A DNA stretch of 64,000 nt. Source: an uncultured Bacteroidota bacterium. Lineage in GTDB: Bacteria > Bacteroidota > Rhodothermia > Rhodothermales > UBA10348. Position numbers and translations under genes: made by a program. The stretch spans positions 5,002-69,001 of the forward strand of contig CALEEY010000026.1 in NCBI GenBank assembly GCA_937877085.1, in the 5' to 3' direction. Each line of letters begins with the position of its first letter. Position 1 is the stretch's first letter. Below the pieces are notes generated by a model, which saw only the letters and a program-made list of their open reading frames with translations, was not told where the DNA came from and made no database searches. Below are positions 27,119 through 51,366 of the stretch, in pieces.

Positions 27119-28441
27119 ATGAAACGACTTTCAACACTCCTATTGTCCGTTTTTTTGCTGAGTATGTCATGGACTGCTTCGGCGCAGACCACCGTAATAA
27201 AAGCGGGACATCTGGTTGATGTGGCAGCGGGCACCGCCGCCGCTAATCAAATGGTACTCATTGTGGACGGGGTGATAACTGAAATTGGGAAAAATCTGAA
27301 AATCCCTGCGGGAGCTCAGGTAGTCGATCTGTCGGATTCCTATGTCATGCCGGGGCTCATCGATTCGCACACGCACGTGACTATGACCGAGATGCCGGGA
27401 GCCGACATTAACGACTTTGGGGCCTATTACTACACGGGTCTTATTGAAACGACTGCGTTCCGCGCCATCCAAGGTGTTGCACAGGCCCGCTCCCTATTGG
27501 AGTCTGGTTTCACGTACATCAGAGATGTGGGCAATAATGCCCTCTACGCAGATGTCGAAGTCCGCCGCGCTATTGAGGGGGGCTGGATCCCTGGTCCCAA
27601 CATGATTGCTTCCGGACGTCTTATTTCGCCATTTGGGGGGCAATTTCAAATGCAACCTGAAAAGCCGGGTCTGGGAAATCCAGAATACTTTTACGCCGAT
27701 ACGGAAGACGAAATCCGAAAAGCGATTCGGGAAAACATCCACTACGGCGCTACGGTAATCAAGATCATCGTGGACAATCAACCCTACATTTATTCGGTAG
27801 AAGACATTGCTGCGGCCGTTGACGAAGCTGGAGACGTTGGCATTAAAGTAGCTGCCCATGCCTACAGTCCAGAAGCCATTCACAATGCGGTTGTCGCAGG
27901 CGTTGCTTCAATCGAGCATGGAAATAATCCATCCGACGAAACACTTGCACTCATGAAAAAAATGGGTACTTATTTGGTAGGAACTGATTTTCCTGCCTCG
28001 CAAACCGGTCAGGCACGCTTTGAATTGATTTTAGAGCGCAATCGACGTGCTTATGCCGCTGGTACTCCAATGGCCTTTGGGTCGGACGTCGTTTATTCTC
28101 GCCCAGATTGGACCAGAGGCGAGCTGACACTAGAATTTCTGGAAAGCTTTACCGGGGCGGGCATCCCCAATGACTACATCCTTCGCATATTCACCATGAA
28201 TGCAGCTGATCTTCTGGGTGTCAATACCGGGCAGATCAAGGTTGGGCTCGCGGCCGACCTCATTGCCTTTGACAGCGATCCCTTGGCAGACGTTACCGCC
28301 TTACGCGGGGTTCACTTTGTCATGAAAGACGGCACGGTGTACAAGCAAGACGGCGAGTTTAAATGGGAAACGCCTCGCAATATGAATAACCCTCGCCGCA
28401 AACCTCGGCGTTCGGTTCTAGCGCCACGTACCGGCAACTGA
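27119..28441 (+). CDS. Secreted amidohydrolase (metal-dependent hydrolase superfamily)
   Basis: Start moved to MKRLSTLLLSVFLLSMSWTASAQ. PGLIDSHTH is the HxH metal motif, followed by downstream VAAHA, IEHG and AFGSD motifs. Confidence 0.8.
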   Translation: MKRLSTLLLSVFLLSMSWTASAQTTVIKAGHLVDVAAGTAAANQMVLIVDGVITEIGKNLKIPAGAQVVDLSDSYVMPGLIDSHTHVTMTEMPGADINDFGAYYYTGLIETTAFRAIQGVAQARSLLESGFTYIRDVGNNALYADVEVRRAIEGGWIPGPNMIASGRLISPFGGQFQMQPEKPGLGNPEYFYADTEDEIRKAIRENIHYGATVIKIIVDNQPYIYSVEDIAAAVDEAGDVGIKVAAHAYSPEAIHNAVVAGVASIEHGNNPSDETLALMKKMGTYLVGTDFPASQTGQARFELILERNRRAYAAGTPMAFGSDVVYSRPDWTRGELTLEFLESFTGAGIPNDYILRIFTMNAADLLGVNTGQIKVGLAADLIAFDSDPLADVTALRGVHFVMKDGTVYKQDGEFKWETPRNMNNPRRKPRRSVLAPRTGN

Positions 28442-28461
28442 GGTATTGACTGACCCGCGGT

Positions 28462-29220
28462 TTATGCGACGGAACGGAGGCTCGATCTCTGTTTTGCGCC
28501 TGACGCGTTCGAAGCACGTCCTTCGAAAAAAAGCACATTCATTCCGATAAGCAAAAAGGCATAGAAGGCATCCTCCACAGGGATGGAAAACATGCGTATG
28601 CCCATATTATGTTCATTCGAATACCATACCACCTGGTCGGCGATGTCCTGTGCTGTATTGTGAATAAGCGGGAATTGCCAAAAGTTGAGTCCCGTAAGAA
28701 TTCCGTTGGTCAAGACAAAAGGGAATATCAAGATGCTGAAAGCCAGCAGAAAATCGGCCAACCACACTGGATTTTTGTACCATAAGATCAAACAGAAAAT
28801 CGCGCACAATCCAGTAGCTGACGCCGTATACCACTGGCTCAGATGAAAAAGACATAGACTGGCGCTAAGTAGCGCTATTAGCAGAACGATGGTCCTTGCG
28901 GTGTTTCCTGAAACCGTTTTCCTATGCGACCGAAGCACGAAGTAGGTAAAAACACAGGCGTACGGAATGGCAATGAAAAACAACCACTCTTCTAGTGGTA
29001 GGCCAAAAAGCGAAAGCCCGACTAAATAGGCTTCGTTGAAGCCCCAAACGCCTTCTGCTGTAAAAAACACGTCCCAGACTATAAAAAACGCCATCGTAAG
29101 AAGGCATGCAGGCCAAAAACGGGGCCATTCGTCAACAAAACGAATTTTTGAATGCCATGAGAATGCCAGTGGAACCGCCAGGGCACATACAACCACTATG
29201 AGATATAGGCTGCCCGTCAC
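28462..29220 (-). CDS. crtY: Lycopene beta-cyclase, fused heterodimeric type (CrtYc/CrtYd-like)
   Basis: 252-aa polytopic membrane protein with two halves, each carrying the P-x-E-(E/D) cyclase motif (GLPLEEWLFF and SIPVEDAFYAF). It has a GTG start overlapping the crtZ stop (GTGA) and is the last gene of the crt operon. Confidence 0.7.
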   Translation of the reverse strand: MTGSLYLIVVVCALAVPLAFSWHSKIRFVDEWPRFWPACLLTMAFFIVWDVFFTAEGVWGFNEAYLVGLSLFGLPLEEWLFFIAIPYACVFTYFVLRSHRKTVSGNTARTIVLLIALLSASLCLFHLSQWYTASATGLCAIFCLILWYKNPVWLADFLLAFSILIFPFVLTNGILTGLNFWQFPLIHNTAQDIADQVVWYSNEHNMGIRMFSIPVEDAFYAFLLIGMNVLFFEGRASNASGAKQRSSLRSVA

Positions 29221-29867
29221 TTTTTGTCTCGACCTGACGATTTTGAGGACATGGGATCCGACTTAATCTGAGCACCTGGGCGAGGCAGTGGCGCTCCCTG
29301 GTCCACCGCTTTCGCCCCCACCATGTGCAGAGGAAGTTCGCTTCTGACGGTTCCGTCAGAAGCTACAAAACCGGGCCGGGGCATCTCAAATGGTAAGCTC
29401 CCAGCGCTTGATTTCGTCTTTATAGACTCTTTGAACAACCGCCAGGGAGCCCACAACATGCCAAAGCACTCTCCGTCCTCAGGGCCTAAATGTTTGTGGT
29501 GGAGTAAATGGGCTTTTCGAATAGCTTTGAAATAGGCATTATCCGTGCGTCGGAGCCATTTGAAGCGCTGATGGATAAAAATATCATGGACTATGAGATA
29601 ACATATCCCATATAAAAGGATACCTAACCCAATCCACACTCTAAAATCGCCATTCAGCGTTCCTGTGATAAAGCAATAGGCGCTTGGGATGGCAAAAATC
29701 AGAAAAAAGGAGTCATTTCTTTCAAAAAAGCCGGGTTCGTGGACGTGATGATCTTTGTGAAACCACCACATGAAACCATGCATGACGTATTTGTGTGCAA
29801 ACCACGCAATAGCCTCCATAGTCAAGAAGGTCGCTAGTACGATAGCTGAATTAATTAGGAAGGACAT
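29217..29867 (-). CDS. crtZ: Beta-carotene hydroxylase with a ~65-aa C-terminal extension
   Basis: His boxes of the fatty-acid hydroxylase superfamily are present: HKYVMH, HKDHH, HDIFIHQR and HLLHHKH. Confidence 0.85.
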   Translation of the reverse strand: MSFLINSAIVLATFLTMEAIAWFAHKYVMHGFMWWFHKDHHVHEPGFFERNDSFFLIFAIPSAYCFITGTLNGDFRVWIGLGILLYGICYLIVHDIFIHQRFKWLRRTDNAYFKAIRKAHLLHHKHLGPEDGECFGMLWAPWRLFKESIKTKSSAGSLPFEMPRPGFVASDGTVRSELPLHMVGAKAVDQGAPLPRPGAQIKSDPMSSKSSGRDKK

Positions 29868-29872
29868 CTCGT

Positions 29873-30463
29873 CTATTTATCTATCGAAAATGGTGTGTAC
29901 AGTGAGTCGACCCGATCAAAACAGATTTTAAACCATTCGGTGAAATGGTGTTCGTTGGCACCCATTTCTTCCCGAATCTTCTCCACAGAAACGTATCGCC
30001 AACTCGCGACTTCAGACGGATTCGGAACCGGATGATCATCCGAATAACCAACGAGGACGTGGTCAAGTTCGTGCTCAATCAAATCTTGGTCCAGATGGGC
30101 TTTGTAAAGGAAAGAAAATTGCGAACTAAAAGTACTTTTCATCCCCATTTCCTCCATTAATCGACGCTCCGCAGCGTTTTCAACAGATTCTCCAAGCCGG
30201 GGGTGGCTACAACAGGTATTGGTCCACAACCCGCCACTATGATATTTGGAATGGGCTCGTTGTTGAAGAAGCATTTCGCCTTTCGAGTTAAAGACAAATG
30301 CGGAAAATGCACGATGAAGGACTCCCAAGCGATGGGCCTTCATTTTTTCCATCGTGCCGAGCTCAGCATCTGATTCGTCAACTAAGATGACGTGATCTTC
30401 TGACTTCGTGGAGGAGTGGATATGCATCATGGGGAATGGTAAATCTGGAGAGATGTCAAACAT
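29873..30463 (-). CDS. idi: Isopentenyl-diphosphate delta-isomerase, type 1 (Nudix)
   Basis: HRAFSAFVFNSKGEMLLQQRAHSKYHSGGLWTNTCCSHP...GES...AAERRLMEEMG matches the Idi active-site Cys and Nudix region. The start is uncertain: 30463 or the MMHIH start at 30430. The 30517 start would overlap crtB. Confidence 0.8.
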   Translation of the reverse strand: MFDISPDLPFPMMHIHSSTKSEDHVILVDESDAELGTMEKMKAHRLGVLHRAFSAFVFNSKGEMLLQQRAHSKYHSGGLWTNTCCSHPRLGESVENAAERRLMEEMGMKSTFSSQFSFLYKAHLDQDLIEHELDHVLVGYSDDHPVPNPSEVASWRYVSVEKIREEMGANEHHFTEWFKICFDRVDSLYTPFSIDK

Positions 30464-30468
30464 GGAGA

Positions 30469-31323
30469 TTAAACCCAATTCAGCTGGTGCCGGGTGTAAA
30501 CAGATAGCCAAAGCCACGCTTTTTGCCCGTCGGGAACGCGGATGCGGCTCTGAAGAATTTCGGAGCTAGGTACCCGTTGAATTCGGCATAATAGTTTGGT
30601 GTAAAAGCTATGCGCCAGAAAAACGCCAAATCGGGCATCTTTTGGAAGTTCTACAATGCCCTCATACGCAGCCTTCAAATCGGCTTCTATATCGGCCTCG
30701 ATGGCTTGCTTTCCTTCTTGGTCGAGCCTAGAAATGTCTACGTTTGGAAAGTAGGAGCGTCCCAGTTTTTCGTAGTCCTCTTGCACATCTCGTAAGAAGT
30801 TGACCTTCTGGAAGGCGGCTCCGAGCCGAATGGCCGGAGCTTTAAGCTGGTTGTACTTCGTTTCGTCGCCGCGCACGAAAACTTTTAAACACATTAGCCC
30901 AACGACTTCCGCAGATCCCGTGATATAGGTCTCATAGGACTGTTGGTCGTAGTGCTGCTCCGTTAAGTCTCGTTCCATACTGTCCAAAAATTGATCAATA
31001 TGGCTGCGTTCGATCCGGTACTCATGTACGACGGATTGAAAAGCGTGCAAGATCGGATTGGTGCTTATTCCTTCCTCAAGAGCCTGATAGGTTTGCTCTT
31101 TCAACCGTCTGAATAACGTTTCCTGATCGTAGCCCTGAAAGGAATCGACCACTTCATCCACCAACCGGACGAATCCATAGATTGAAAAGATGGCGGGTTG
31201 AATTTCTTTTCCGAGGGCTCCAATACTTTTGCTAAAGGAAGTCGAGTAGTGCTTCGTTAAAGAAATACTACATGCTTCACTCATGTTTTCGAATATTGAA
31301 AGTCGGTCGCTTCTACGTTTCAT
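30469..31323 (-). CDS. crtB: Phytoene synthase
   Basis: Squalene/phytoene synthase Asp-rich motifs are present (VRLVDEVVD; FLRDVQEDY). It has an ATGA overlap with the crtI stop. Confidence 0.9.
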   Translation of the reverse strand: MKRRSDRLSIFENMSEACSISLTKHYSTSFSKSIGALGKEIQPAIFSIYGFVRLVDEVVDSFQGYDQETLFRRLKEQTYQALEEGISTNPILHAFQSVVHEYRIERSHIDQFLDSMERDLTEQHYDQQSYETYITGSAEVVGLMCLKVFVRGDETKYNQLKAPAIRLGAAFQKVNFLRDVQEDYEKLGRSYFPNVDISRLDQEGKQAIEADIEADLKAAYEGIVELPKDARFGVFLAHSFYTKLLCRIQRVPSSEILQSRIRVPDGQKAWLWLSVYTRHQLNWV

Positions 31324-32831
31324 ACGGCCTCCAAAGTGGTTTTCAATTTCTTAGAAAGCCATAAATGAGCCTGTTCTGCAGCTACTTGCCCACTTATTAG
31401 GCTTGGAGGTACTCCAGGGCCTGGCGTGGTAAGCTGCCCGGCGTAAAACAAGCCGGGTAGTTTGCTCCTCATTTTAGGCTTCATGAACGCTGTTTGGCTC
31501 ATGGTATTGGCTAGGCCGTACGCATTGCCACGGAACGCGTGGTAGTCTTCTTGGAAGTCCTTGTGCGCATAACTTCGTTTGAACACAACCGAAGATCGGA
31601 TGTCTGCTCCTACCGCTTGCTCGAGGCGCAACATTACTTTTTCAAATAATACCTCATGTTCATTGTCCTTGGCTTCTAGACCCGCGGCCAAAGGAATGAG
31701 AATGAACAAGTTTTCGCTTCCCTCGGGGGCTACAGACGCATCCGTCTTAGAGGGTACGGCCACATAAAACAACGGATCGGCCGGCCACCGCGGATGATCG
31801 TAAATGGCATCTGCGTGAGGCTCAAATGGCACATCAAAAAACAGATTGTGATGGTCCAAATGGGCCAAGCGCTTGTTCACTCCTAAGAAATAGATCAAAG
31901 CACCAGGCGACATTTTACGGCTTTTCCAGTAGGCATCGTCATAAAGACGCCACTGGGCTGGAAGCAATCGTTGCTCCACGTGGTGATAGTCTGCAGCGGC
32001 AACCACCACCTGGCAGCGGATGGAACCATCCTTGAACGTCACTTCGGAAACCCGACCTTCGCCTTCGACGATGCCGGTTACTTCCGTGTCAAAGCAAAAT
32101 CGAACGCCTTTTTTTCTGGCCACTGATTCCATAGCCCGAACGATCTGAATCATGCCCCCCATCGGATACCACGTACCGAGAGCGGTATCCGCGTAGTTCA
32201 TCAGACTATACAGCGCCGGCGAATGCTCCGGACGAGACCCCAAGAAGAGGACCGGAAATTCCAGTATTTCAATGATCTTCGGGTGGGAGAAGTGACTTCG
32301 AATATGCTTGCTCAAGGAGCTAAACATAGCCATGTTCATGGAGGACAGGATGGCTTCGAAATTGGCGAACTCCCAAATGGAGTTTCCGGGTTTCCACACG
32401 AATTCAGCCATTCCAAGCCGATATTTTTCTCCCGCTTCATTCATAAAACGGTCAAAAGCGTCTCCACATCCCGGTTCTAGGGACTCGAAAAGTGCCTTCA
32501 CTTTTCCTAAGGTTGCCGGAATATCGAGAGGACCGTCTTCAAACCACACCCGGTAGCTTGGATCTAATCGGACCAAATCGAAATAGGTGCTGACCGATTC
32601 TCCCGCTTTCTCGAAAAACTGCTCAAAAACGTCCGGCATCCAATACCAGCTCGGGCCCATATCGAATTTGAAACCGTCGCTCTCGAATAAGCGCGCTCTC
32701 CCGCCGGCTGTGGCATGTTTTTCTAAGACCGTGACCGAAAAACCCAAATCCGCTAAGCGAGTAGCCGCAGCGAGACCAGCAAACCCGGCCCCTATCACAA
32801 CAGCATCACGTTGTTGAATACTCATTTTCAT
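31320..32831 (-). CDS. crtI: Phytoene desaturase
   Basis: N-terminal FAD fold (VVIGAGFAGLAAATRLADLG) and a C-terminal GLFYAGQLTTPGPGVPPSLISG motif typical of CrtI. Confidence 0.9.
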   Translation of the reverse strand: MKMSIQQRDAVVIGAGFAGLAAATRLADLGFSVTVLEKHATAGGRARLFESDGFKFDMGPSWYWMPDVFEQFFEKAGESVSTYFDLVRLDPSYRVWFEDGPLDIPATLGKVKALFESLEPGCGDAFDRFMNEAGEKYRLGMAEFVWKPGNSIWEFANFEAILSSMNMAMFSSLSKHIRSHFSHPKIIEILEFPVLFLGSRPEHSPALYSLMNYADTALGTWYPMGGMIQIVRAMESVARKKGVRFCFDTEVTGIVEGEGRVSEVTFKDGSIRCQVVVAAADYHHVEQRLLPAQWRLYDDAYWKSRKMSPGALIYFLGVNKRLAHLDHHNLFFDVPFEPHADAIYDHPRWPADPLFYVAVPSKTDASVAPEGSENLFILIPLAAGLEAKDNEHEVLFEKVMLRLEQAVGADIRSSVVFKRSYAHKDFQEDYHAFRGNAYGLANTMSQTAFMKPKMRSKLPGLFYAGQLTTPGPGVPPSLISGQVAAEQAHLWLSKKLKTTLEAV

Positions 32832-33631
32832 TTGACGGTTGAGAGGGTTGATGCCACGGCACTGAAATCATGGATGCGAAATCCAAACGGGATGTTTTCT
32901 GGCCATGCGCCACTTCCGCCCACCAGCAGACGCGTTTCGGTCTTTTGGCACGACGCCGATATTGTCTGTATTTGTCGCGCCAAATCTTCAGCGTTGGTAG
33001 ACGCTTTTGAGGCGGAAAGGGCTACCATTTGGACAGATTGTGTTTCCAACATACGACATACTTCTGCAACCGGCGTATTAGCACCTAACCACAGGCAGCG
33101 CCAACCCAGTTCCCGAAGAACAACCTGCAACATCGACAAACCCAACGTATGCAGATCCCCCTCTGCGCTTGAAAGGAGGCACTTTGGTGCATTGGAAGCC
33201 ACCGGCATGGACTCATAGATAGAATCTAAAACGCGTGAAAGACGCTCAGTAGCCGCATGTTCTTCTCCGATGGTAATCGACTTATTTACCCATCGTTTTC
33301 CCGTTTCCCGGACTCCAGCCGACAGTTCGTCCATGGTCTTATACCACGAACCGTTTCGACCCCTAGCCTCCAACAGTCTGGACTGCAACCCATGAAACTC
33401 CAGATTCAGAATGGCATCGCCCCATTCATATCCGAGATTTTCATCCAGAGGCTGCAAGGAATGCCCTTCCGGGTCTTGAATAAAGGCCATAATATCCGAC
33501 AAGACCAAACGCCGATGGCCTCCGGGGGTCTTGACGGTACGAAGTTTACCTTCGTCTGCCCAGCGCTTGATACTGGACACGCCAACGCCAGCAAGTTTTG
33601 CTGCAGAAGTAGTGGTTAGGGTTTCTTTCAT
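32828..33631 (-). CDS. MerR-superfamily HTH regulator with a cobalamin-binding domain (CarH/LitR-like light-responsive repressor)
   Basis: N-terminal HTH (SAAKLAGVGVSSIKRWADEGKLRTVKTPGGHRR). It carries the W-x9-EH motif (RWVNKSITIGEEH) and the DxHxxG B12 lower-ligand motif (GDLHTLG). Its stop overlaps the crtI start (ATGA). Confidence 0.75.
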   Translation of the reverse strand: MKETLTTTSAAKLAGVGVSSIKRWADEGKLRTVKTPGGHRRLVLSDIMAFIQDPEGHSLQPLDENLGYEWGDAILNLEFHGLQSRLLEARGRNGSWYKTMDELSAGVRETGKRWVNKSITIGEEHAATERLSRVLDSIYESMPVASNAPKCLLSSAEGDLHTLGLSMLQVVLRELGWRCLWLGANTPVAEVCRMLETQSVQMVALSASKASTNAEDLARQIQTISASCQKTETRLLVGGSGAWPENIPFGFRIHDFSAVASTLSTVK

Positions 33632-33637
33632 GAACGT

Positions 33638-33666
33638 ATTTTACGACAAATGAACGAATTTGTCAA
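33638..33666 (-). promoter_or_regulatory. Near-consensus sigma70-type promoter of the regulator-crt operon, predicting a leaderless transcript
   Basis: The minus strand reads TTGACA-(17 nt)-TAAAAT-ACGTTC-ATG. The -35 is at 33661-33666 and the -10 at 33638-33643. Only 6 nt separate the -10 from the start codon, leaving no room for an SD. Confidence 0.5.
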
Positions 33667-33687
33667 TATATTCGTCCAAATCGTTCA
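33651..33687. promoter_or_regulatory. Imperfect inverted repeat (TGAACGA-type arms) spanning the -35 box; candidate operator
   Basis: TGAACGAATTTG ... CAAATCGTTCA differ by a 1-nt indel. Further TGAACG/CGTTCA-type copies lie at 33631-33636 and 33693-33699. Confidence 0.4.
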
Positions 33688-33784
33688 TTAAGGTTCACGT
33701 TTGGTCGTTTTTCTGCTTAAACAGACCCTTAACCAGTGGTTGTTGATCCTTTGAAATAGAACGTGACTTCGTGAAAGGCGGCCA

Positions 33785-34324
33785 TCACTCGCAAATGGTC
33801 AGCATATTCAAGCAGTCTTTGATCGAATTAAGCGTGGTGCGCTTGATTTCAGAATCGGCAATGTGCAGTTGCAACTTGCCATCGGTTGAAAAGACAAACA
33901 CGTTGACCAACGACGGCTTGACGCCATACAAACGATTAAACTGCCCTTTCCAATCCAATAAAACGGGGGCCAACCTATCGCGTTTAATCATCTTGCGGAC
34001 GAACGATCTAAAAATTGGTGGCACGTTTTCCACATGAGCGACGGCTAAAATGGCGACACCATGTGAGTTTGGCAGCTCCTCGGCAATCGTCTGAATGGCG
34101 CGTCCCCAATTTTCTGAATGTGTACTCCCCTCTCGATCCGATACAATGATGACCGTACTTTGCCCCGAAATGGCTTTACTGGAATGAAGGACATCAAATT
34201 GATCTCGCAGATCAAAAGGGACCAAAACCTTGGCTTGTCCAAAGGACACGCATGGCTCGAGGGCGATCCATAAAAAAATGCACGCAAACAATAGAATTGT
34301 TCGCCTTGCTACGTGGAGATCCAA
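33785..34324 (-). CDS. Hypothetical secreted protein (possibly thioredoxin-fold, YtfJ-like)
   Basis: It has an N-terminal signal peptide. Size and layout resemble periplasmic YtfJ-type proteins, but I see no diagnostic motif. Confidence 0.4.
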   Translation of the reverse strand: MDLHVARRTILLFACIFLWIALEPCVSFGQAKVLVPFDLRDQFDVLHSSKAISGQSTVIIVSDREGSTHSENWGRAIQTIAEELPNSHGVAILAVAHVENVPPIFRSFVRKMIKRDRLAPVLLDWKGQFNRLYGVKPSLVNVFVFSTDGKLQLHIADSEIKRTTLNSIKDCLNMLTICE

Positions 34325-34460
34325 ATTGTTGAAGGCCTTGAATTGGTAGGGTTAAAGGTGCCGCTGATACCGAGTAGTTTGATTTCTGTTACCAACGAAC
34401 GCGGATTTTTAAGCGAGTATTGTGTGTATTCCACGGTCTGTATTCTACAGTTGGTGGCGC

Positions 34461-34961
34461 CTAACCCAAAGCAACTTCGGCGAGCGATGCCGGACCGGTC
34501 GATTGAACAGATCCCGATAAAATGCGCCTCAAATACCCGGCCTGGCCCAGATGTAACGCGAAGTGCGAGCACAAATGCAGTAAAAACTGCTGCGTATTGA
34601 GCTCAAACCCCCCTACGCGTTCCGGATAAATCGTGCCTAATAGAGTGGAATCGATGGAGGAGAAAGCCCGCTTTAAAACCTCGATCGTACTTTCGATTTC
34701 GCGGCTTATTTCCGCTTTAGACAAGGAACGGTTCGCGAATTCGTTTTCACGATCTCGCGTATAGGGAATACCGCCCATCACGAATCCGACGTAATGCTTC
34801 AGATTGCCGCAGAGGTGAATGGCGAGCGTTCCGGCGGGATTCACAACGCCTGGAAGTACTTCCCAAATTTGTTGATCGTTCGGAAATGCTTCGATTTCCT
34901 TCTTCATGCCGCCTAAGTCGCGGATGAGTAGGGTTTGAATGTGGGCTAGAATGGGTGTCAT
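34461..34961 (-). CDS. DinB family (DinB_2) protein
   Basis: The His-triad pattern of the four-helix DinB fold is present (AIHLCGNLKHYVG ... LLHLCSHFALHLGQAGYLRR). Confidence 0.7.
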   Translation of the reverse strand: MTPILAHIQTLLIRDLGGMKKEIEAFPNDQQIWEVLPGVVNPAGTLAIHLCGNLKHYVGFVMGGIPYTRDRENEFANRSLSKAEISREIESTIEVLKRAFSSIDSTLLGTIYPERVGGFELNTQQFLLHLCSHFALHLGQAGYLRRILSGSVQSTGPASLAEVALG

Positions 34962-35737
34962 ATGGATGATTGGATTCGGAATAATGACCTGGCGCGCTTT
35001 AATCCTAAAAGCACCCCCAACGCAAGGGTAACTAAAACAAGTTCTTGAGCAGCCATTTCCACGGTCGGATTGGTGACATTGGCCTCTGCAATTCCATAGG
35101 CAGCCCAGGCAATGACCAGCAAATAGGCAGCGTTAGCTTGCCGCCAGCCAACAACAAAAGCCGCAGCACCCGCCAAGCCAAGCTTTAGAAAAGTCCACAC
35201 TTCTTGACTCAAAAGAACCTCATTGAATCCATACGCCGATTGTAATACGCTAACATTGGCAATTGTAGCCACGCTTATCCATCCAAAATAAATACTGAAC
35301 GGTAGGACCAGTAAAGCAAAATCGAGCGCTCCGACTATGCTCTTATCTGAACGAAGGATCGCGTTTATTTTTACCAACGTCACCAAAATTACGATCATCA
35401 GCGCCATCGATACGGCCAACTGGCCGTATTGCCATGCGAGTATCCATCCAACGTTGGCGAGGCAGTTTACCTTAAACAGGGGGGCGATCTGCTCGAGGGA
35501 CCGCTTCCCTCCTTCACGCTGCAGGAGCTGACGAACGACAAATCCAGCCAATGCTAAATAAATGACTCCCCAAATGGCGAAAGTAAATCCAGCTGGAGTA
35601 AACATCGAGGAGTAGCTGTCTGAAATCTCTCCAGTGGTACGTCCTCCCAGCGGCAGCGCCGTGGCGAGGTAATTGAACAAAATTACCAGCGCAAACGCGC
35701 CGACATTTCCATACCGATCGAGTTGGCTTTTAGTCAT
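34958..35737 (-). CDS. Polytopic membrane protein, TspO/MBR-related (tryptophan-rich sensory protein-like)
   Basis: Seven or so TM helices. The N-terminal segment TPAGFTFAIWGVIYLAL and Trp-rich helices resemble TspO-related proteins. It overlaps the DinB start by 4 nt. Confidence 0.45.
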   Translation of the reverse strand: MTKSQLDRYGNVGAFALVILFNYLATALPLGGRTTGEISDSYSSMFTPAGFTFAIWGVIYLALAGFVVRQLLQREGGKRSLEQIAPLFKVNCLANVGWILAWQYGQLAVSMALMIVILVTLVKINAILRSDKSIVGALDFALLVLPFSIYFGWISVATIANVSVLQSAYGFNEVLLSQEVWTFLKLGLAGAAAFVVGWRQANAAYLLVIAWAAYGIAEANVTNPTVEMAAQELVLVTLALGVLLGLKRARSLFRIQSSI

Positions 35738-36111: not shown

Positions 36112-38091
36112 TCACTCACGCACCGACCAAATCGACCCGTTGGCTTTCGCGAGCACATACAGTTCGCCTGCTGCATCCATCCCAAATCGAAGTTCTGTTC
36201 GAGGCCTGCCAGCAAAATGTTCAAACGTTTGCTCCACATTTTTAGCATCCATCAGGATGGCGCGCTGAATCTTGGCGTCCGCTTGTCCCAACTGAAGGTC
36301 CTCGGCATCTACGTAATAGATTCGGCCCGAAATCAGGTCCCCAAACACATATTTCCCGTAGAGCGCGGGGATACGTTTCCCTCGATATACGAAGCCTCCA
36401 ACCAAAGCAGCCAGCTCATCATGGTCTATACGGGCAACGGGATCCGTAAAGTCATCGTCTGAGCTGCGGCCTTTTGGATACACACTAGACGGGTCCCCTT
36501 TTTCGTATCGAAATCCACCTTCGCGATGATTCCAGCCGTAATTCGCTCCGCTTTCGCCCAAGAAAATACTTTCGACCTTAGCTTCACCAATGTGACCAAT
36601 AACCATGGTTCGCGTGAGCGTGTCCCAGCTAAATCGATGGGGATTTCGTAGCCCCAACGCCCATATTTCGCCCAAAGCATTCGTTTTGCCCACAAAAGGG
36701 TTGATCGACGGAATTCCGTACTGCCCATTGAGGCTGTTTTTGCCCAAAGGATCGATTCGAAGAATTTTCCCGGTGTGGGCGCCAAGCGATTGGGGGTTTT
36801 CTGTCTGAAAACCAGGTCTTTCTCCGTCGCCAACAGACAGGTAAAGAAGACCGTATTCGGAAGTCCCTTTCTTGGCCGTCGGATCAAATGCAATTTGTTG
36901 AATGCCGTGTAAGGTGGAATTGAATCCCAACCGGAGCACCTCTCTTACGGGTCCTTTGAATGTGGATGCCCCCGGATCTGCCGCCGTCCATTCCAACAGA
37001 ACTCCTTGAACAGCATCTCCTTCGCCATTGGAATAGTCCGGAATACGATCTTCTAGTGCTTTTCCAGCCTCCGTATGCACCGTGTACAGTTTTCCGTTCT
37101 GCGCAAACTCCGGATGAAATGCGAAGAAGGTGAAACCACTCGCCAACCCAGGATCGTCAATAAAGCTTGGGTTCTGACTACGCAGGTTGAGGTATTCGCT
37201 CACCTTTCCATCAACAATCGCGTACAATTTTCCTCGCAAATCATTGACAAATACTCGATTGGAGTCACCGTTTGCATACCCGAGATAGCCAATCCGCGCG
37301 AGGGGCCCGCCCGTGGCATCGCTCGCGGGAATAACGGCGAAGGGCTCCAGTCGCAGGCTCAGGCTACCCACTTCGATGGCTTCGGGAATGGGGTCTATAA
37401 GGGGAGCAGCGCCACTTACCAGCCGAATGTCCCGAAAAGCCCCTGTATCGTCGAAAGATCCAAATCCTATGGCTCCTTTTTTGAATGTCTTATCGGTCAT
37501 GGTCATGAGTGGCGTGCGCAGATCGTCCACATAAACCTGTGTCTCCCCGGTCGCGACGTTCCGATCTACCCGAATTTGATGCCATTCGGTGTCAGAAAGC
37601 CGGGTTTCTGGAGGATTTTCGAGCCCTTGATCGTCAATTCGGCGGCGGTCGGCATGATCTACGATGAAAATGCCGTTATGGGGCATCACCGTGTTATCGT
37701 TCGACAGGTGGGCATAGTAAAACTTTTCTGGAGACTGGTAACCAAAAACGATGATCACGTCCCGGCCCACGATGTCTGGACTCGTAGAAGATTTTACAAG
37801 AGCCGTTAAATGAAAGTTGGTCAACGATCGCGTGCCCCTAGCCGTAGCTAAGGCGCCCGGGCGCCGAATAGCCTCGGGAATCGAACCAGGCGCAATCAAT
37901 TCAAGCACACCATCCTCAAACGTCCAAAGTGCCGGCTCTTCAAAGTCCCATGCTTCTGGAGTTGTCATTTGGCCATCGGATAGCGATTCCGCAAATTCAT
38001 TCGACGGGGAATCATCTTTCTGCGTACAACCTGAGATGCACGGAAAAATGATACCGGAAACGAGAATCAGAGACAAAAGAGAACGATTCAT
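36112..38091 (-). CDS. Lipoprotein: N-terminal DUF1080-like (3-keto-disaccharide hydrolase/LamG fold) domain fused to a PQQ-dependent sugar (sorbosone/glucose) dehydrogenase-like beta-propeller
   Basis: Lipobox (CISGCTQ). The N-terminal WTFEDGVLEL...LTNFHLTALVKSS segment is followed by C-terminal GLRNPHRFSWD and GANYGWNHREG motifs typical of soluble quinoprotein dehydrogenases. Confidence 0.6.
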   Translation of the reverse strand: MNRSLLSLILVSGIIFPCISGCTQKDDSPSNEFAESLSDGQMTTPEAWDFEEPALWTFEDGVLELIAPGSIPEAIRRPGALATARGTRSLTNFHLTALVKSSTSPDIVGRDVIIVFGYQSPEKFYYAHLSNDNTVMPHNGIFIVDHADRRRIDDQGLENPPETRLSDTEWHQIRVDRNVATGETQVYVDDLRTPLMTMTDKTFKKGAIGFGSFDDTGAFRDIRLVSGAAPLIDPIPEAIEVGSLSLRLEPFAVIPASDATGGPLARIGYLGYANGDSNRVFVNDLRGKLYAIVDGKVSEYLNLRSQNPSFIDDPGLASGFTFFAFHPEFAQNGKLYTVHTEAGKALEDRIPDYSNGEGDAVQGVLLEWTAADPGASTFKGPVREVLRLGFNSTLHGIQQIAFDPTAKKGTSEYGLLYLSVGDGERPGFQTENPQSLGAHTGKILRIDPLGKNSLNGQYGIPSINPFVGKTNALGEIWALGLRNPHRFSWDTLTRTMVIGHIGEAKVESIFLGESGANYGWNHREGGFRYEKGDPSSVYPKGRSSDDDFTDPVARIDHDELAALVGGFVYRGKRIPALYGKYVFGDLISGRIYYVDAEDLQLGQADAKIQRAILMDAKNVEQTFEHFAGRPRTELRFGMDAAGELYVLAKANGSIWSVRE

Positions 38092-38137
38092 CGAAGCAAC
38101 GAATGGGATTTCGGTCGAAAAACTTTCTGAATATCGG

Positions 38138-39520
38138 TTACCGATCTTGAATAATCGCTACGACCTGGGTATCAAAGTTTTCATAGGTCGTGTAGGAGCC
38201 TCGAAGCCACAGTACAACCCGTCGCTCGCTTTTCCACGACGGGATGATGGGTCGAATATTATCCATGGTCGAATGTTGGGTGATGGCCTTCCAATCAAAC
38301 GATTTTCCACCGTCAATCGAAGTGCCTTCAAAGAGTTCATAATGACGTTTTTGATCGGCCCGGCTCACCAGGGCTTCGCCGGTAACCGGGTCGGCATTGG
38401 TCGAGATCACCAAGTGATTGACATTTTCGGGGTCTATGGCCACTAAACCCGTGTAATCGTCCTCAAACGGATATAGTCTTTCACCAGCAAATGCAATCTC
38501 GTGCTGCTGCCAGCCATCTCCGGAAAAACGGGCCAAATGAAAACGGTGGTCTAAACCAGCCAATTTGGGTGGATGGTCTCTCCCATCCTTTTGCACCGAA
38601 AACGCGATTACCGGTTGGTCCTGCTCATCCACGGCGACATCGGCCATCCACGCCACATTGTCGGGATTACCGGCAAAAACCAATGTAAGCGCCGACGGCG
38701 GGACGGCATCTTGATCGCGTAATTCCGCGTCTAGGACACTACCGAACGAGTCGTAGAGCGAGTGACCGTCCGTGGAGCCATGATAGATTGAATTGTCAAA
38801 GTTACGGGGATGCTGATCCGTTGCGACAACGTGAATCCTAGACCCGTCGCGGTTGTCCACATACTTTAGGTACGGACGACCTTCGCTACTCAACAAACGA
38901 CCACCATACTGCCACTGACCCCCCAAGGAGTCAAGGACTAAAAAATTTGGATTCCATCCTCGCGAGCGGGAAAAGTCGTATAGCTTGCGATCCTTGCCGA
39001 CTCCGGCTGTCAGCAGGTTGTTGTACGTGACATTGGCCTCGTCTTGATAGATCTCCAGGTCGTTCCATTTTTGGGGATTATGGGCTTCAGAATGGGCCAC
39101 GTAAACGTTTTTATCGCTACCGTGTCTTGAAAAAAGGGCGAGAACCTGTCCGTTTTCCTGTTGAAACAGCGCCGCCGCGTTGTGATCGTCTTGGCCAAGG
39201 CGGTCATACAGTTCTACGGCTCCGCCCTGTCCACTGTTCAATCCGAACCAGTGAAAGTCCAGATCTCCTTGCTCGGTCGAATCCCGATCCGAGGCAGAAA
39301 TCGACGTGAACATGAGCATGGGTTCGTCCGGATGGTTTGCATCGACAATGGCGCGCTCATCTTGAAACCAACACCACGCTCCGTTGGGACTGCCAGCCGT
39401 TCCGGTGAAGATAATCAGGTCGCCCCGAACAAAATCGATCGCATGTTCTTGGGGTTCGTCCGGTCCACAGCCAGCGAATACCACGATCAATAAAACCACT
39501 ACACTCCTTTGGATCATCAT
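38138..39520 (-). CDS. Hypothetical lipoprotein, possibly a BNR_4/sialidase-like beta-propeller
   Basis: Lipobox (VFAGCGPD). WCWFQDERAIVD and DDHNAAALFQQENGQVLALFSRHG weakly resemble BNR-4 repeat proteins. The function is uncertain. Confidence 0.35.
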   Translation of the reverse strand: MMIQRSVVVLLIVVFAGCGPDEPQEHAIDFVRGDLIIFTGTAGSPNGAWCWFQDERAIVDANHPDEPMLMFTSISASDRDSTEQGDLDFHWFGLNSGQGGAVELYDRLGQDDHNAAALFQQENGQVLALFSRHGSDKNVYVAHSEAHNPQKWNDLEIYQDEANVTYNNLLTAGVGKDRKLYDFSRSRGWNPNFLVLDSLGGQWQYGGRLLSSEGRPYLKYVDNRDGSRIHVVATDQHPRNFDNSIYHGSTDGHSLYDSFGSVLDAELRDQDAVPPSALTLVFAGNPDNVAWMADVAVDEQDQPVIAFSVQKDGRDHPPKLAGLDHRFHLARFSGDGWQQHEIAFAGERLYPFEDDYTGLVAIDPENVNHLVISTNADPVTGEALVSRADQKRHYELFEGTSIDGGKSFDWKAITQHSTMDNIRPIIPSWKSERRVVLWLRGSYTTYENFDTQVVAIIQDR

Positions 39521-39642
39521 TCAATGCCTTTTTTTTGAAAAAGCCTCCTAGTTAATAGACCAGCTTGTTTTCGTCCAAAATACGGTCTCCGGACCAAGCC
39601 GGATCAAGTGGCGCGTAAACACTTGGTGAGGCTACCAAAACG

Positions 39643-40989
39643 TCAAGAACTGAGGCATTTGCGCGCATATCGGGTGTCGATGTGCGCACCAAGTTGAGTT
39701 AAAATGGACATCAGACCGCCCAAGAGTCGATTTACAAATACAAAGTGGTGGGATCCAATGGGGCGTCTATACTTGTAGGCTTCTCGTCCCATGAATTTAG
39801 GCATGACTTCTTTGAAGCGTTCTAATAACACGCCTGAGCCAAAATCGTACACATCGGCTTCGTACAAAGAAGCGATAATATCTCCCATGGCACCGATTAT
39901 TTCCAACAGGTAGGCCCTTTCGTCTGGCTTTAAATCCGCAGGAAGTAGCTCCAGCGCCGTGTATACACGCTCCTGCCTCGCCTGGTCTCCAGACATTCGG
40001 GCCTTAAAAAGCTCCAATAGATTGTCCCTGAAATCCCGCGGGAATCGCTTCACACATCCAAAGTCCAATATGGCTAGACGCCCATCCGGTCGAAACATGA
40101 AATTCCCTGGATGAGCATCCGCGTGGACCGTCAAATGGTCAGCGACAATTTGGGTGTGAATGGTATCCCACAATAATTGGCCGTATCGATCGCGATCCTC
40201 CTGAGTGGGATTCGAGGCCAGATATTCTTTGAGGTGAACGCCCTCAACATAGGTCATAGTCAGAACCCGCTCGGTACTGGTTTCTTTGACCCATTGGGGA
40301 ATTATTATTTGAGAGCTATCGAACCGCCCAGCGAAAACCTCCAAATTTTGGCCTTCCAACAAGTAATTCGTCTCTTCCATCATCCGGTCTCGGACTTCTT
40401 TGAGATAGGGATCAATGGCCTGGGCGTCAATAAATCTTCCAGCGATCCCTCGCACCAACCTCAGATCCGAGTCAATGCTTTCCCGAACGTTAGGGTATTG
40501 CACCTTAACAGCGACTTGGCGCCCATCGTGCAAGGTGGCTCGGTGAACCTGTCCCAAAGAAGCAGCTGCCATGGCTGGAAACGAAAAATCGGCAAATGCC
40601 TTTTCAGGAGGCGCCCCCAAAGCCTGGGTTACGAGGCGTCTCACTAGGGCTGGACCCATGGCCGGGACTTCGTATTGGGCCTTAGATAATATCTGGTGGA
40701 ATTGCTCTGGCAGTACGCCCGGTTCCATGCTCAGCCCTTGCGCCATTTTCAGAGCGGTCCCTCGCAATTTGGACAACTCAGCAAACAGATCTTCCGCATT
40801 ACGCGTGTGTAGCTCGCCCCTAGCCTCTTCCTTATTGGTGCCTGTAATCCTTCTGGATAAATACCGCGCGTAGTTGGAGCCAATTTTCAAACCCGTTTTG
40901 GCCGCGATTAGGCCTCGGTCGGTGGCGCCGCCTGGCGGCGCCCCATATTCATCCCCTTTGTCTTGACCCCCTTTGTCTTGATCTTCCAT
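39643..40989 (-). CDS. ABC1/UbiB (AarF) atypical kinase family protein
   Basis: AAASLGQVHRATLHDGRQVAVKVQYP, the HADAHPGNF catalytic loop and ILDFG are present. Confidence 0.85.
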   Translation of the reverse strand: MEDQDKGGQDKGDEYGAPPGGATDRGLIAAKTGLKIGSNYARYLSRRITGTNKEEARGELHTRNAEDLFAELSKLRGTALKMAQGLSMEPGVLPEQFHQILSKAQYEVPAMGPALVRRLVTQALGAPPEKAFADFSFPAMAAASLGQVHRATLHDGRQVAVKVQYPNVRESIDSDLRLVRGIAGRFIDAQAIDPYLKEVRDRMMEETNYLLEGQNLEVFAGRFDSSQIIIPQWVKETSTERVLTMTYVEGVHLKEYLASNPTQEDRDRYGQLLWDTIHTQIVADHLTVHADAHPGNFMFRPDGRLAILDFGCVKRFPRDFRDNLLELFKARMSGDQARQERVYTALELLPADLKPDERAYLLEIIGAMGDIIASLYEADVYDFGSGVLLERFKEVMPKFMGREAYKYRRPIGSHHFVFVNRLLGGLMSILTQLGAHIDTRYARKCLSS

Positions 40990-40991
40990 AA

Positions 40992-41588
40992 TCAGCTATT
41001 TTCCTCGCCGTCCTGAGCACTTTCTTCCGCATGTTTGGAAGGGTTAAACCATTCTGAAATGAAAGGAATCCGGTTTAGCGGCAAATAGCCAGCTTCTACG
41101 CTGTAGCGAGCGAGATCAACTGCTTTTTGAGGAATGGGATTCGCCCAGACGGATGCCACAAAAGCCAACGTCTTGTCTGCCAAGGCTGCCGATCGGTGCC
41201 GGTCCGGCGACGTGTCTTTTAAAGTGGCTAGAAGCAGTTGCACCAACACCTCAGCGGCCACAAAACGCGCGGGAGCCGTATCGGTAATCCATTGATTGAT
41301 GCTCGAAACATCGGGCGCACGGGCTACCGAAGTCAGCGCATTTCGAAGCGCGCTATGAAAGGGCGAGTTAAACCCGGCGGCCTCCGACTCAAATATTTCA
41401 GCGAACTCGGGACTCTCCGCTGTGGGATCAGCTTTTGAGGCATGATGCGCTTGGCTCCATTCATCCAACGCATCCAACAGCATAAAAAAGAAGGCCGTCA
41501 TGCGTTCGGAAACGGGCCATGAATGGACATCCGGGACTTGATTTAACTGATCAAGGGCATCGGAAACGGACTGCTTAAACTGGATCAA
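40992..41588 (-). CDS. Hypothetical protein, probably co-transcribed with the ABC1 kinase
   Basis: 198-aa ORF whose stop lies 2 nt before the kinase start. I recognise no motif. Confidence 0.5.
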   Translation of the reverse strand: MIQFKQSVSDALDQLNQVPDVHSWPVSERMTAFFFMLLDALDEWSQAHHASKADPTAESPEFAEIFESEAAGFNSPFHSALRNALTSVARAPDVSSINQWITDTAPARFVAAEVLVQLLLATLKDTSPDRHRSAALADKTLAFVASVWANPIPQKAVDLARYSVEAGYLPLNRIPFISEWFNPSKHAEESAQDGEENS

Positions 41589-41814
41589 CTGAATGCCTTT
41601 TGTAGGACGAGCTTGGGAAAGGGTTCGGGCTGCTTTTGCGAATTAGTGCATGCTAAGCGTACGGCGATGGAGGATCAAAGCTCCCCAAAAAACACGTTGG
41701 GACGATTCGGCCAGGGCCGCAGAGCCGCTGCTAAATTCAAAGCTTCCCAGATCTTCCATACCGGAAAGCAGGGGTAGGGACACCAACCAGGCCACTTACC
41801 CATTTTAAAATTCT

Positions 41815-42603
41815 TTAATCTCCAGTGACCTCTGTAAAAAAGCCGTGTTGCAAAAAATAGAGGGCGTGTGAGATAACCTTTTGGTTCTCCATGATAAAGG
41901 GATGTGATACGGGTACTACCAAAAAATCCGTCATCCCTTCCAGTTTCGCGTTCTCAACAGATACCTTGCCGTCGTCTCGGCCGTTAATCAGGAAAGAAAG
42001 TATCGGATTGACGGTTCGGCTTCCGGTTATTATACCGACGTCAAATGTTGCCGCTCCCAATTGAAGTGGTAAACTGGACGTACTCGTTCCTAATTCTCCA
42101 CCTGCAGGTCCATTCATTTTCTTGAAGAGCCACCAATGGCCTAGTTTGTCGACAACCTCACTTCCGCCGTTGGGCGGGCTTAACATGACGACGCGTCCGA
42201 TGCGAGGAAGCTGGTCGTGAAGCGCCAAATACCTAACCAGGATCCCACCCATAGAATGGGTAACAAAGTCTATCTCGGAGTCCAAGCTGCCAAAACAAGC
42301 TTTGATCTCAGGCAGGACAAAATGTAAAGCTAGTGTTTCTATCGGATGCTCCGTTGACGGGTAATCAATATTACACGTACTGAAGCCGGCCTTATCCAGG
42401 GCAGTCTGCATTTTTTGCATAGAATAACTTGATCTAGCCAGCCCGTGAAGGAGCACGACCTTTCGCCCTTCCACAACTTTTTCCGGCGCCACCTCCACCG
42501 TTTGGGTCGCTGCTTGCCCCGCCGGGTTCTCTCCCACAGGGCCGTGCTTCGCCGCCCGGCCACCCAAGAAATAAGCAAAAGCTACAATCAAGACATATTT
42601 CAT
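41815..42603 (-). CDS. Alpha/beta hydrolase (lipase/esterase, PGAP1-like)
   Basis: Start moved to MKYVLIVAFAYFLGG. It has an LLHGL oxyanion region and a THSMGG nucleophile elbow. Confidence 0.7.
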   Translation of the reverse strand: MKYVLIVAFAYFLGGRAAKHGPVGENPAGQAATQTVEVAPEKVVEGRKVVLLHGLARSSYSMQKMQTALDKAGFSTCNIDYPSTEHPIETLALHFVLPEIKACFGSLDSEIDFVTHSMGGILVRYLALHDQLPRIGRVVMLSPPNGGSEVVDKLGHWWLFKKMNGPAGGELGTSTSSLPLQLGAATFDVGIITGSRTVNPILSFLINGRDDGKVSVENAKLEGMTDFLVVPVSHPFIMENQKVISHALYFLQHGFFTEVTGD

Positions 42604-42722
42604 TCGGTTAACACCATCGGTGAAACTCGATTCTAAGGACTCAAAAGCACGCCCGAGCAACTGGACCGGTTTCAGGGCTGTCTTTATCGGGCCTGCCCCT
42701 CCCATATAAACCAGCCCCTCTC

Positions 42723-43913: not shown

Positions 43914-44127
43914 TTTGATTTTTTAGATTGATTTAAGGCTATTCCCTCTCGAATGAGCCTACATGCTTGATGATGTCATCATTTTATTACGGTAGAAGAT
44001 AGTCCGGTTTGGTAAATTGGCAACGGTGATTGATGCCGGCACGATGGCCGTTTTTCAATAACACTCATTTCGGCTCCCTGAATGGTTCCATAACCTACAC
44101 CTTCTGAACGGCCAAACGGCATACATC

Positions 44128-44841: not shown

Positions 44842-44852
44842 TTTCTTAGGAA

Positions 44853-46835: not shown

Positions 46836-46887
46836 ACGGGCTTCGAAGGTCGTGCGGGCCATACGGGCTTCGAGGGTCGTGCGGGCC
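46825..46887. repeat. 27-bp tandem repeat (2 full copies plus a partial one) at the 5' end of the cupredoxin-fusion gene
   Basis: GTGCGAGCCATACGGGCTTCGAAGGTC / GTGCGGGCCATACGGGCTTCGAGGGTC / GTGCGGGCC... Each full copy carries an in-frame ATG on the minus strand (Met at 46835 and 46862). Confidence 0.85.
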
Positions 46888-46932
46888 GCTGAGGCTTCCT
46901 GGGCTGAAAATGTAGATGTCGGTTTCATGGGA

Positions 46933-49101: not shown

Positions 49102-51366
<2,265 letters not shown>

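Follow-up and report, generated by a model that had tools for sequence, protein, structure and literature searches.

A putative B12 photoreceptor with a BldC-like DNA-binding domain heads a carotenoid operon in an uncultured member of the Rhodothermales

Within a 64-kb stretch of DNA from an uncultured Rhodothermales bacterium (contig CALEEY010000026.1; hereafter the window), six genes packed on the minus strand between positions 28462 and 33631 encode a regulator with a cobalamin (B12)-binding domain followed by enzymes of carotenoid synthesis. We consider it likely that these genes form an autoregulated, light-derepressed carotenoid operon whose repressor is a B12 photoreceptor. Three lines of evidence carry this reading: the conservation of photoreceptor motifs and fold in the regulator, the presence of 9-bp repeats arranged around a strong promoter immediately upstream of it, and the persistence of both gene order and repeats among relatives.

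The regulator and the gene cluster that it heads

The regulator gene (32828–33631) encodes a protein of 267 amino acids (aa) whose N-terminus aligns with those of its homologues; the open reading frame (ORF) uses the earliest start codon that follows a stop, and there is no in-frame start 5' of 33631. The original prediction credited the protein with an N-terminal helix-turn-helix (HTH) and with the hallmarks of adenosylcobalamin (AdoCbl) photoreceptors, and proposed a search with Pfam models as a check. With Pfam gathering scores and NCBIfam cut-offs as thresholds for all family searches, this check upheld the prediction where B12-binding (PF02310; 43.2 bits versus 32.1, residues 150–241) and HTH_17 (34.6 bits versus 27, residues 5–52) are concerned, while two of the proposed models, MerR (26.7 versus 28.2) and B12-binding_2, fell below threshold. 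The two motifs singled out at the time are indeed present, W-x9-EH as W114-x9-E124-H125 (WVNKSITIGEEH) and DxHxxG as D159-L-H161-T-L-G164. In a family alignment of 30 homologues (37–75% identity), residues W114, E124, H125, H161, G111, G183, G238–G239 and R23 are invariant, and T186 and P187 of the G183xxxP187 signature are nearly so; the invariance of W114, E124, H125 and H161 indicates that the motifs are more than chance occurrences. The complete B12 motif, D159xH161xxG164-x41-S206xS208-x29-G238G239, follows the classic D/ExHxxG-x41-SxT/V-x22-27-GG pattern with two small deviations, namely a Ser where Thr or Val is expected and a spacer of 29 residues.

An AlphaFold (AF2) model computed on the family alignment, with a mean predicted local distance difference test score (pLDDT) of 91.3, displays a winged HTH (residues 4–52), a four-helix bundle (residues 62–141) and a Rossmann B12-binding domain. 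Its best matches in the PDB are the structures of full-length Thermus thermophilus CarH in its dark and its DNA-bound state (TtCarH; 5C8E and 5C8D, E-values from 6e-13 to about 1e-12), and it superimposes on the cobalamin-binding domain of CtMerR (8JBS) with a template modelling (TM) score of 0.79 and a root-mean-square deviation of 2.8 Å. In sequence, however, the closest solved protein is CtMerR (8JBS_A, residues 3–50 and 104–260, E-value 3.6e-24) rather than TtCarH (6e-9). CtMerR is a 'MerR family protein' of Chloracidobacterium thermophilum (WP_157850694; PDB codes 8JBS in the dark and 8JBT in the light; FEBS J 2024, PMC11796333), the cobalamin-binding domain of which binds AdoCbl and, in green light, shows a CarH-like spectral change and goes from tetramer to monomer (PMC11796333). 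The second His of the TtCarH bis-His light state is missing from CtMerR, which has an Arg there and is photoactive with AdoCbl nonetheless; the same paper reports neither a DNA target nor regulated genes (PMC11796333).

When the N-terminal 70 aa are compared alone, they match CtMerR (E-value 7.5e-9) and Streptomyces BldC (6AMA/6AMK, 3e-5) better than the classical MerR protein SoxR (0.14); the NCBIfam HTH_BldC model (NF033787) gives an E-value of 1e-10 with 41 bits, below its cut-off of 77. Judged from these sequence comparisons, the domain resembles BldC more than classical MerR. The NCBIfam CarH equivalog scores 51.3 bits versus a cut-off of 400, with a match confined to residues 99–245. The description of the regulator as 'CarH/LitR-like' thus stands as far as the B12-photoreceptor hallmarks and the fold are concerned; a canonical CarH identity does not, and the protein is better placed in a CtMerR-like branch with a BldC-like DNA-binding domain.

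These features bear on a first alternative, according to which the regulator binds its operator and yet is no photoreceptor, being either B12-independent like Myxococcus CarA, with a separate anti-repressor, or a cobalamin or redox sensor. B12-domain regulators that do not use light-labile AdoCbl are known, e.g. CarA and class II LitR (PMC9304148, PMC9758184); moreover, W114 is not followed by His in the window regulator (the residue at this position is variable, but never His, in the 30 homologues) and the Pfam B12-binding_2 match, over residues 72–137, reaches 20.1 bits, short of the gathering score of 23. CarA, on the other hand, lacks the Trp of Wx9EH, whereas the W, E and H of this motif and the lower-ligand His are invariant across the 30 homologues here; CtMerR, the nearest characterised homologue, is photoactive with AdoCbl although it too is devoid of the second His; and no anti-repressor-like gene was noticed adjoining the operon. 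We hold this alternative to be improbable, and retain the photoreceptor as the preferred reading.

All six minus-strand ORFs were found where the original prediction had placed them. Downstream of the regulator gene lie (i) crtI (31320–32831, 503 aa), encoding a phytoene desaturase (crtI_fam, TIGR02734, 425 bits); (ii) crtB (30469–31323, 284 aa), encoding a phytoene synthase (SQS_PSY, PF00494, 140 bits); (iii) idi (29873–30463, in an ORF listed as 29873–30517), encoding a type-1 isopentenyl-diphosphate isomerase (IDI) of the Nudix type (NF002995, 163 bits versus a cut-off of 127); (iv) crtZ (29217–29867, 216 aa), encoding a CrtZ-type di-iron carotene hydroxylase (FA_hydroxylase, PF04116, 39 bits versus a cut-off of 31); and (v) a gene with a GTG start (28462–29220, 252 aa) for a fused two-domain lycopene cyclase of the CrtYc–CrtYd type, in which PF18916 and TIGR03462 each match two stretches (two Lycopene_cyc/CarR domains, 108 bits). 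Reading the junction letters bore out the three overlaps previously described: the regulator stop TGA and the crtI start ATG share ATGA (32831–32828), the crtI stop TGA and the crtB start ATG share ATGA (31323–31320), with GGAGG 6 nt 5' of the crtB start, and the crtZ stop TGA and the cyclase start GTG share GTGA (29220–29217). The 5-nt gaps claimed for the remaining junctions fared unevenly. The idi–crtZ spacing is 5 nt, but the crtB–idi gap has this length only if idi starts at ATG 30463 (196 aa); a start at 30430 (185 aa) leaves 38 nt. The later start is favoured by the public gene call on an ENA metagenome contig with an identical stretch (ATG 30430, 185 aa) and by the N-termini of homologous IDI proteins, which extend 7–13 residues ahead of the conserved HVILVD motif. 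The packing is operon-like with either start.

A genome scan with the family alignment yielded 80 loci (L001–L080). The order regulator–crtI–crtB–idi–crtZ–cyclase is kept in eight of them, all from metagenome-assembled genomes (MAGs) of Rhodothermales/Rubricoccaceae (L001–L005, L007, L008 and L012), in which the identity to the regulator decreases from 77% to 40% and CrtZ shares 56–80% identity with its positional counterpart. It may be asked whether the six genes are nonetheless separate, with the crt genes expressed from internal constitutive promoters and the regulator acting only on its own gene or on distant ones. A weak promoter-like match does occur inside the operon (30266–30239, 9 of 12 positions), and the crtB–idi gap may be 38 nt long. 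Promoter-like matches in the region are, however, rarer than in shuffled sequence (4 versus 7.0), three junctions overlap and the others do not exceed 38 nt, and the regulator-first order persists down to 40% regulator identity, so that we regard this possibility as very remote. The operon reading of the original prediction is in keeping with the tight junctions, with the order conserved in the eight MAG loci and with the single strong promoter and operator located 5' of the regulator gene.

Promoter, operator and proposed switch

The 153-nt region 5' of the regulator gene contains the best promoter match in 28200–34400, a sigma-70-type TTGACA-17 nt-TAAAAT on the minus strand (33638–33666) that agrees with the consensus at 11 of 12 positions. 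The -10 hexamer ends 6 nt before ATG 33631, with no purine-rich stretch in between. Given this short distance, transcription would begin with the A of the start codon or a neighbouring nucleotide, and the operon transcript is probably leaderless, as far as the hexamers allow one to judge.

This promoter is embedded in 9-bp units, all listed here on the minus strand. The left arm (33669–33686) consists of two tandem units, GAACGATTT and GGACGAATA, which read as the reverse complement of AAATCGTCC, the consensus of the Rhodothermales units, and face away from the gene. The right arm (33632–33660) faces the gene and comprises AATTCGTTC (33652–33660), in the orientation opposite to the left arm and on the other side of the -35 hexamer, a degenerate unit ATTTGTCGT (33643–33651), which overlaps the -10 hexamer, and AATACGTTC (33632–33640), which abuts the start codon. 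Altogether the units, two of them facing outwards and two or three facing the gene, are centred on -35. With a position weight matrix (PWM) trained on Rhodothermales units only, the left arm obtains the top tandem score of the 64-kb window (24.7, the next best being 13.8), and the right arm scores 12.6 and 11.1. A search of the window for further operators, with a strict tandem pattern and with the PWM, returned a high score at the operon promoter only; hence there is no evidence for a local regulon beyond the operon. A general repeat search recovered the same units, as inverted repeats I3 and I6 for the left arm and as a direct repeat D2 (12 nt, spaced 20) for the right arm. A distal operator-like unit, AAAACGACC (33703–33711, about 76 nt 5' of the ATG, PWM score 8.5), is found at an equal distance in L001, L004 and L007; its role is uncertain, since in L004 and L007 it coincides in part with the start of a divergent gene.

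The same design recurs upstream of the regulator gene in the eight MAG loci: two outward-facing units (about -54 and -45) precede a -35-like hexamer, and two units facing the gene (about -26 and -17) follow it, the second of which runs into a -10-like hexamer, with the inner units 17–18 bp apart and the pairs centred on -35. In more distant relatives, too, the right arm holds two units with a 9-bp spacing (about -26 and -17). To gauge the specificity of this arrangement, we took the best tandem PWM pair on both strands of each locus of about 16 kb. It falls within 160 nt 5' of the regulator start in 57 of 78 loci. A uniform distribution would give 1.1, an expectation that we discarded as too lenient for AT-rich intergenic DNA, and column-permuted matrices were used as the control instead: among the 69 loci on which the matrix was not trained, which belong to several phyla, the best site lies just 5' of the regulator gene in 47, versus a mean of 5.3 (standard deviation 5.9, maximum 31) for the permuted matrices. 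The 2+2 layout extends to loci of Myxococcota, Acidobacteriota, Binatia and Nitrospirales, where the ATG is further from the -10 hexamer. In the Rhodothermales, the -10 to ATG distance is 5–7 nt in nine of 11 sequences (the window, L001, L002, L004–L007, L012 and L023); the leaderless arrangement therefore seems specific to this order.

Outside the Rhodothermales (L009–L080; Myxococcota, Planctomycetota, Acidobacteriota and others), the regulator homologues mostly do not lie beside crtI or crtB. Their neighbours are a divergent YfcH-like oxidoreductase gene (TIGR01777; 24 loci), a CMAS-type, cyclopropane-fatty-acid-synthase-like methyltransferase gene and a DUF1365 gene, and the 9-bp-repeat operator sits in the common intergenic region. 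We take the set formed by a YfcH-like oxidoreductase, a cyclopropane-fatty-acid-synthase-like protein and DUF1365 to be typical of light and singlet-oxygen stress clusters. Such a gene neighbourhood is consistent with light sensing throughout the family.

Some loci of the scan deserve separate mention. The Rubricoccaceae MAG Ww533 has two regulator paralogues, one of which (L004) heads a crt operon, while the other (L006) lies elsewhere and is preceded by operator-like repeats at -25 and -16, which suggests a second light-controlled promoter in this genome. The context of L006 is uninformative: the contig begins 300 nt upstream, and downstream are found genes for proteins with a type IX secretion system (T9SS) tail and for LacI. 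In eight Planctomycetota loci (L022, L024, L026, L035, L039, L040, L043 and L044), the first codons of the regulator gene, ATG-GAC-GA(A/T), form a GGACGA half-site, and more GGACGA is present upstream; the operator may extend into the coding sequence there, or the half-site may arise by coincidence from an M-D-E N-terminus. Finally, L073 (CAMDBH010000090.1), labelled 'MAG: Klebsiella pneumoniae', contains a 30%-identical regulator homologue and appears to have been binned or named wrongly.

The geometry of the operator speaks to a further alternative, that of a MerR-style activator which remodels the promoter upon a signal, instead of a dark-state repressor. The regulator HTH does belong to the MerR-like superfamily, and classical MerR proteins activate from between -35 and -10. 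Yet the spacer already has the optimal length of 17 bp between near-consensus hexamers, which makes a MerR-type realignment needless, and the repeats, which span from about -55 to +1 and include both hexamers, have the layout of a repressor site, like CarH operators. In addition, the modelled regulator appears to be devoid of the MerR coiled-coil dimerisation helix, residues 62–141 folding as a four-helix bundle in the prediction. Activation of this kind strikes us as most unlikely, and what follows assumes a dark-state repressor.

The chain of events that we infer, from AdoCbl binding through an oligomeric switch and repression to leaderless initiation and the nature of the pigment, would be the following. 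In the dark, the regulator would bind AdoCbl, with H161 as the lower axial ligand and W114, E124 and H125 as a cap, and form a tetramer. Its four BldC-like winged-helix domains would occupy 9-bp units in two opposed pairs centred on -35; the occupied units would extend over the -10 hexamer and the start site and thereby exclude RNA polymerase. An arrangement of four sites in two opposed pairs over -35, -10 and +1 would fit the need of a tetrameric repressor. Green, blue or ultraviolet light would cleave the Co–C bond, the oligomer would disassemble and the promoter would fire. A single transcript would then give rise to the regulator, CrtI, CrtB, IDI, CrtZ and the fused cyclase, with the stop/start overlaps coupling several of the genes. 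As the regulator would be made together with the enzymes, repression could be restored quickly once the light stops and AdoCbl is available. The predicted light response has a precedent in the same order: in Rhodothermus marinus, a cultured species, a small crt operon opens with a MerR/litR homologue (PMC7414004), and the organism lacks colour if kept in the dark but is pigmented in the light (PMC11730185).

Several points weigh against this scheme or against details of it. Regarding the regulator, besides the sub-threshold B12-binding_2 match, the Val that follows W114 means that a light state of the TtCarH bis-His type cannot form, and the recognition helix, S20-IKRWADEGKL, is not the RxWERRY of canonical CarH. 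Regarding the DNA, the use of sigma-70-type hexamers as promoter signals of this lineage is an assumption; the 9-bp period does not match the helical repeat, a difficulty with which BldC copes by bending the DNA; and the second right unit is degenerate in the window, as it is in the two closest relatives, where the -17 unit of other loci likewise gives way to one at -5, which makes the number of occupied sites uncertain. Regarding the pathway, the second family to which CrtI can be assigned, described below, makes the predicted end product less secure.

Predicted pigment and genomic surroundings

According to Pfam and NCBIfam, which assign all five enzymes unambiguously, the CrtB, CrtI, cyclase and CrtZ families are all represented within one predicted transcription unit. 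This enzyme set would yield hydroxylated cyclic carotenoids, with zeaxanthin as the simplest prediction, a plausible though not a secure one. The 'zeaxanthin-type' pigments of the original prediction are therefore compatible with the enzymes, but their identity is less firm than was supposed: CrtI also exceeds the cut-off of NF058655, 'bifunctional phytoene desaturase/3,4-desaturase' ('CrtID'; 675 versus 640 bits), and monocyclic 3',4'-didehydro products are thus a conceivable alternative end product. A literature search on 'CrtID' returned nothing relevant. Note that the R. marinus papers leave the 3',4'-desaturase of this organism unidentified; the corresponding activity of the Rhodothermales may be supplied by the CrtI clade of this order.

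To look for other pathway genes, we scanned the ORFs of at least 150 aa across the 64-kb window, plus the operon neighbours, with Pfam. The absence of a ketolase, a glycosyltransferase and a cruF-like gene that had been reported was confirmed; among these larger ORFs no match was obtained for crtE, cruF, a crtO/W ketolase, crtD, a glycosyl- or acyltransferase, a rhodopsin or blh. Since crtE was not found in the window, geranylgeranyl diphosphate (GGPP) synthase must be encoded elsewhere. A cruF-type hydratase gene is missing from the operon and from the larger ORFs of the window despite the 'CrtID' match of CrtI.

Other observations concern the enzyme genes themselves. CrtZ ends in a low-complexity tail of about 60 aa (29217–29400, minus strand), which is kept in its closest relatives. 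In L003 (12205–12283) and L008 (12798–12906), the crtZ and cyclase matches obtained with tblastn overlap by about 80–110 nt, reflecting either a later cyclase start in these loci or a true gene overlap. A gene of 504 aa located 3' of the cyclase gene in L004 and three other loci was considered as a carotenoid enzyme and rejected, the product being epimerase-like.

Directly 5' of the operon promoter, an ORF of 179 aa (33785–34324, minus strand) encodes a protein with a signal-peptide-like N-terminus and without a match in Pfam or NCBIfam; a similar ORF occupies the same position in four related loci (e.g. L002, 6493–7080), and no terminator was detected between the 179-aa ORF and the operon promoter. 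About 0.8 kb 5' of the operon, two minus-strand genes overlap by 4 nt (34461–35737); they code for a membrane protein of the TspO/MBR family (259 aa, 26 bits versus a cut-off of 24) and a DinB/DUF1572-like protein (166 aa). TspO (CrtK) is a tetrapyrrole-binding protein linked to the control of carotenoid and photosynthesis genes in Rhodobacter, and the location of a TspO-type gene near a light-regulated crt operon may be non-accidental. Further away, a run of genes for secreted proteins (36112–48840) includes three with 3-keto-disaccharide hydrolase (DUF1080-type) domains, together with one glucose/sorbosone dehydrogenase and one plastocyanin-like copper domain, a BNR protein and a fusion of thioredoxin and ankyrin, and a KatG-like catalase-peroxidase of 728 aa is encoded at 49180–51366. 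An Rfam scan of the whole window returned nothing at the gathering score, neither a tRNA nor a riboswitch (cobalamin or other) nor a small RNA.

Comparison with known regulators and carotenoid clusters

The control of carotenoid genes by AdoCbl photoreceptors is an established paradigm, and a regulator-led crt operon is expected in this group of bacteria. In flavobacteria, e.g. Nonlabens spongiae, MerR–crtI–crtB–crtZ clusters have been described (PMC11855829). Such Bacteroidota/Rhodothermota clusters, including the MerR–cruF/crtB–...–crtI cluster of R. marinus, share with the window operon a MerR/LitR-type gene in first position, but differ in their content: the window operon contains idi, crtZ and a fused CrtYcd, and is devoid of cruF, cruD, crtO and crtY.

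With the class I CarH/LitR proteins (those of T. thermophilus, Bacillus megaterium and Myxococcus xanthus), the window regulator has in common the three modules, the Wx9EH motif, the D/ExHxxG lower-ligand motif and, by prediction, the control of carotenoid genes, the autoregulation and an operator that covers -35 and -10. The recognition helix sets it apart, RxWERRY being a hallmark of the CarH and CarA DNA-binding domains (PMC9304148). The operators differ as well. That of canonical CarH, bound by a tetramer, is a tandem array of three or four 11-bp repeats, nnnnTnnACAn, running in a single direction (PMC9304148), as opposed to the 9-bp period and the two opposed pairs found here; no TnnACA sites paired at 11 bp are present in the promoter region, where the sole fit is the -35 hexamer itself. 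The core of the 9-bp unit read on the other strand, T-R-R-A-C-G, is one base away from the CarH TnnACA, a likeness that one would expect from a diverged homologous recognition helix.

The resemblance to CtMerR is closer. Both proteins have the same type of HTH, with the common ...KRW..G.L...TPGGHRR motif, and all four of the light-responsive signatures defined for CtMerR (PMC11796333) are present in the window regulator, as G111xxW114, E124H125, G158xxH161 and G183xxxP187. The Trp is followed by V115 here and by Arg in CtMerR, hence in neither case by a His. CtMerR is longer (327 aa, with a longer linker), and the identity in the structural alignment is about 22%; for the window protein, unlike CtMerR, a crt-operon context and a predicted operator are available.

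In BldC, Arg30, which reads the C-G pair in every repeat, aligns with R23 of the window regulator, and the TxGGHRR wing is common to both proteins (T35-P-G-G-H-R-R41 here). Streptomyces BldC (6AMA/6AMK) binds head to tail to 9-bp direct repeats, AATTxxxxC, with bending of the DNA (Nat Commun 2018, PMC5859096); the repeat period is the same in the window, and the unit AATTCGTTC fits AATTxxxxC. BldC nevertheless has no sensor domain, oligomerises on DNA only and governs development rather than pigments, whereas the window protein is not a stand-alone DNA-binding domain. Among the papers listed by a literature search combining BldC, cobalamin and photoreceptor, none refers to BldC, a weak indication that the link has not been described.

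These comparisons lead to a proposal to which we would give even odds: the CtMerR-like branch joins CarH-type light sensing to a BldC-type winged helix and reads a distinct operator grammar, absent from the literature searched, in which two pairs of 9-bp AAATCGTCC-like units, four units in all, oppose each other across about 17 bp, with the -35 hexamer at the centre. This grammar would be kept 5' of the regulator gene in Rhodothermota, Myxococcota, Planctomycetota, Acidobacteriota and other groups and, in the Rhodothermales, would act on a leaderless, autoregulated carotenoid operon. The photochemistry and the domain structure of the branch were published in 2024 without a target; the locus described here and its relatives supply a predicted operator together with the genes that it would regulate, i.e. 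the carotenoid operon in the Rhodothermales and, by prediction, light-stress genes elsewhere. If the proposal is true, it provides the missing DNA target for CtMerR and could add a second green-light-switchable repressor/operator pair for optogenetics, possibly orthogonal to CarH, and it would connect the light sensing known from CarH with the mode of DNA recognition known from BldC.

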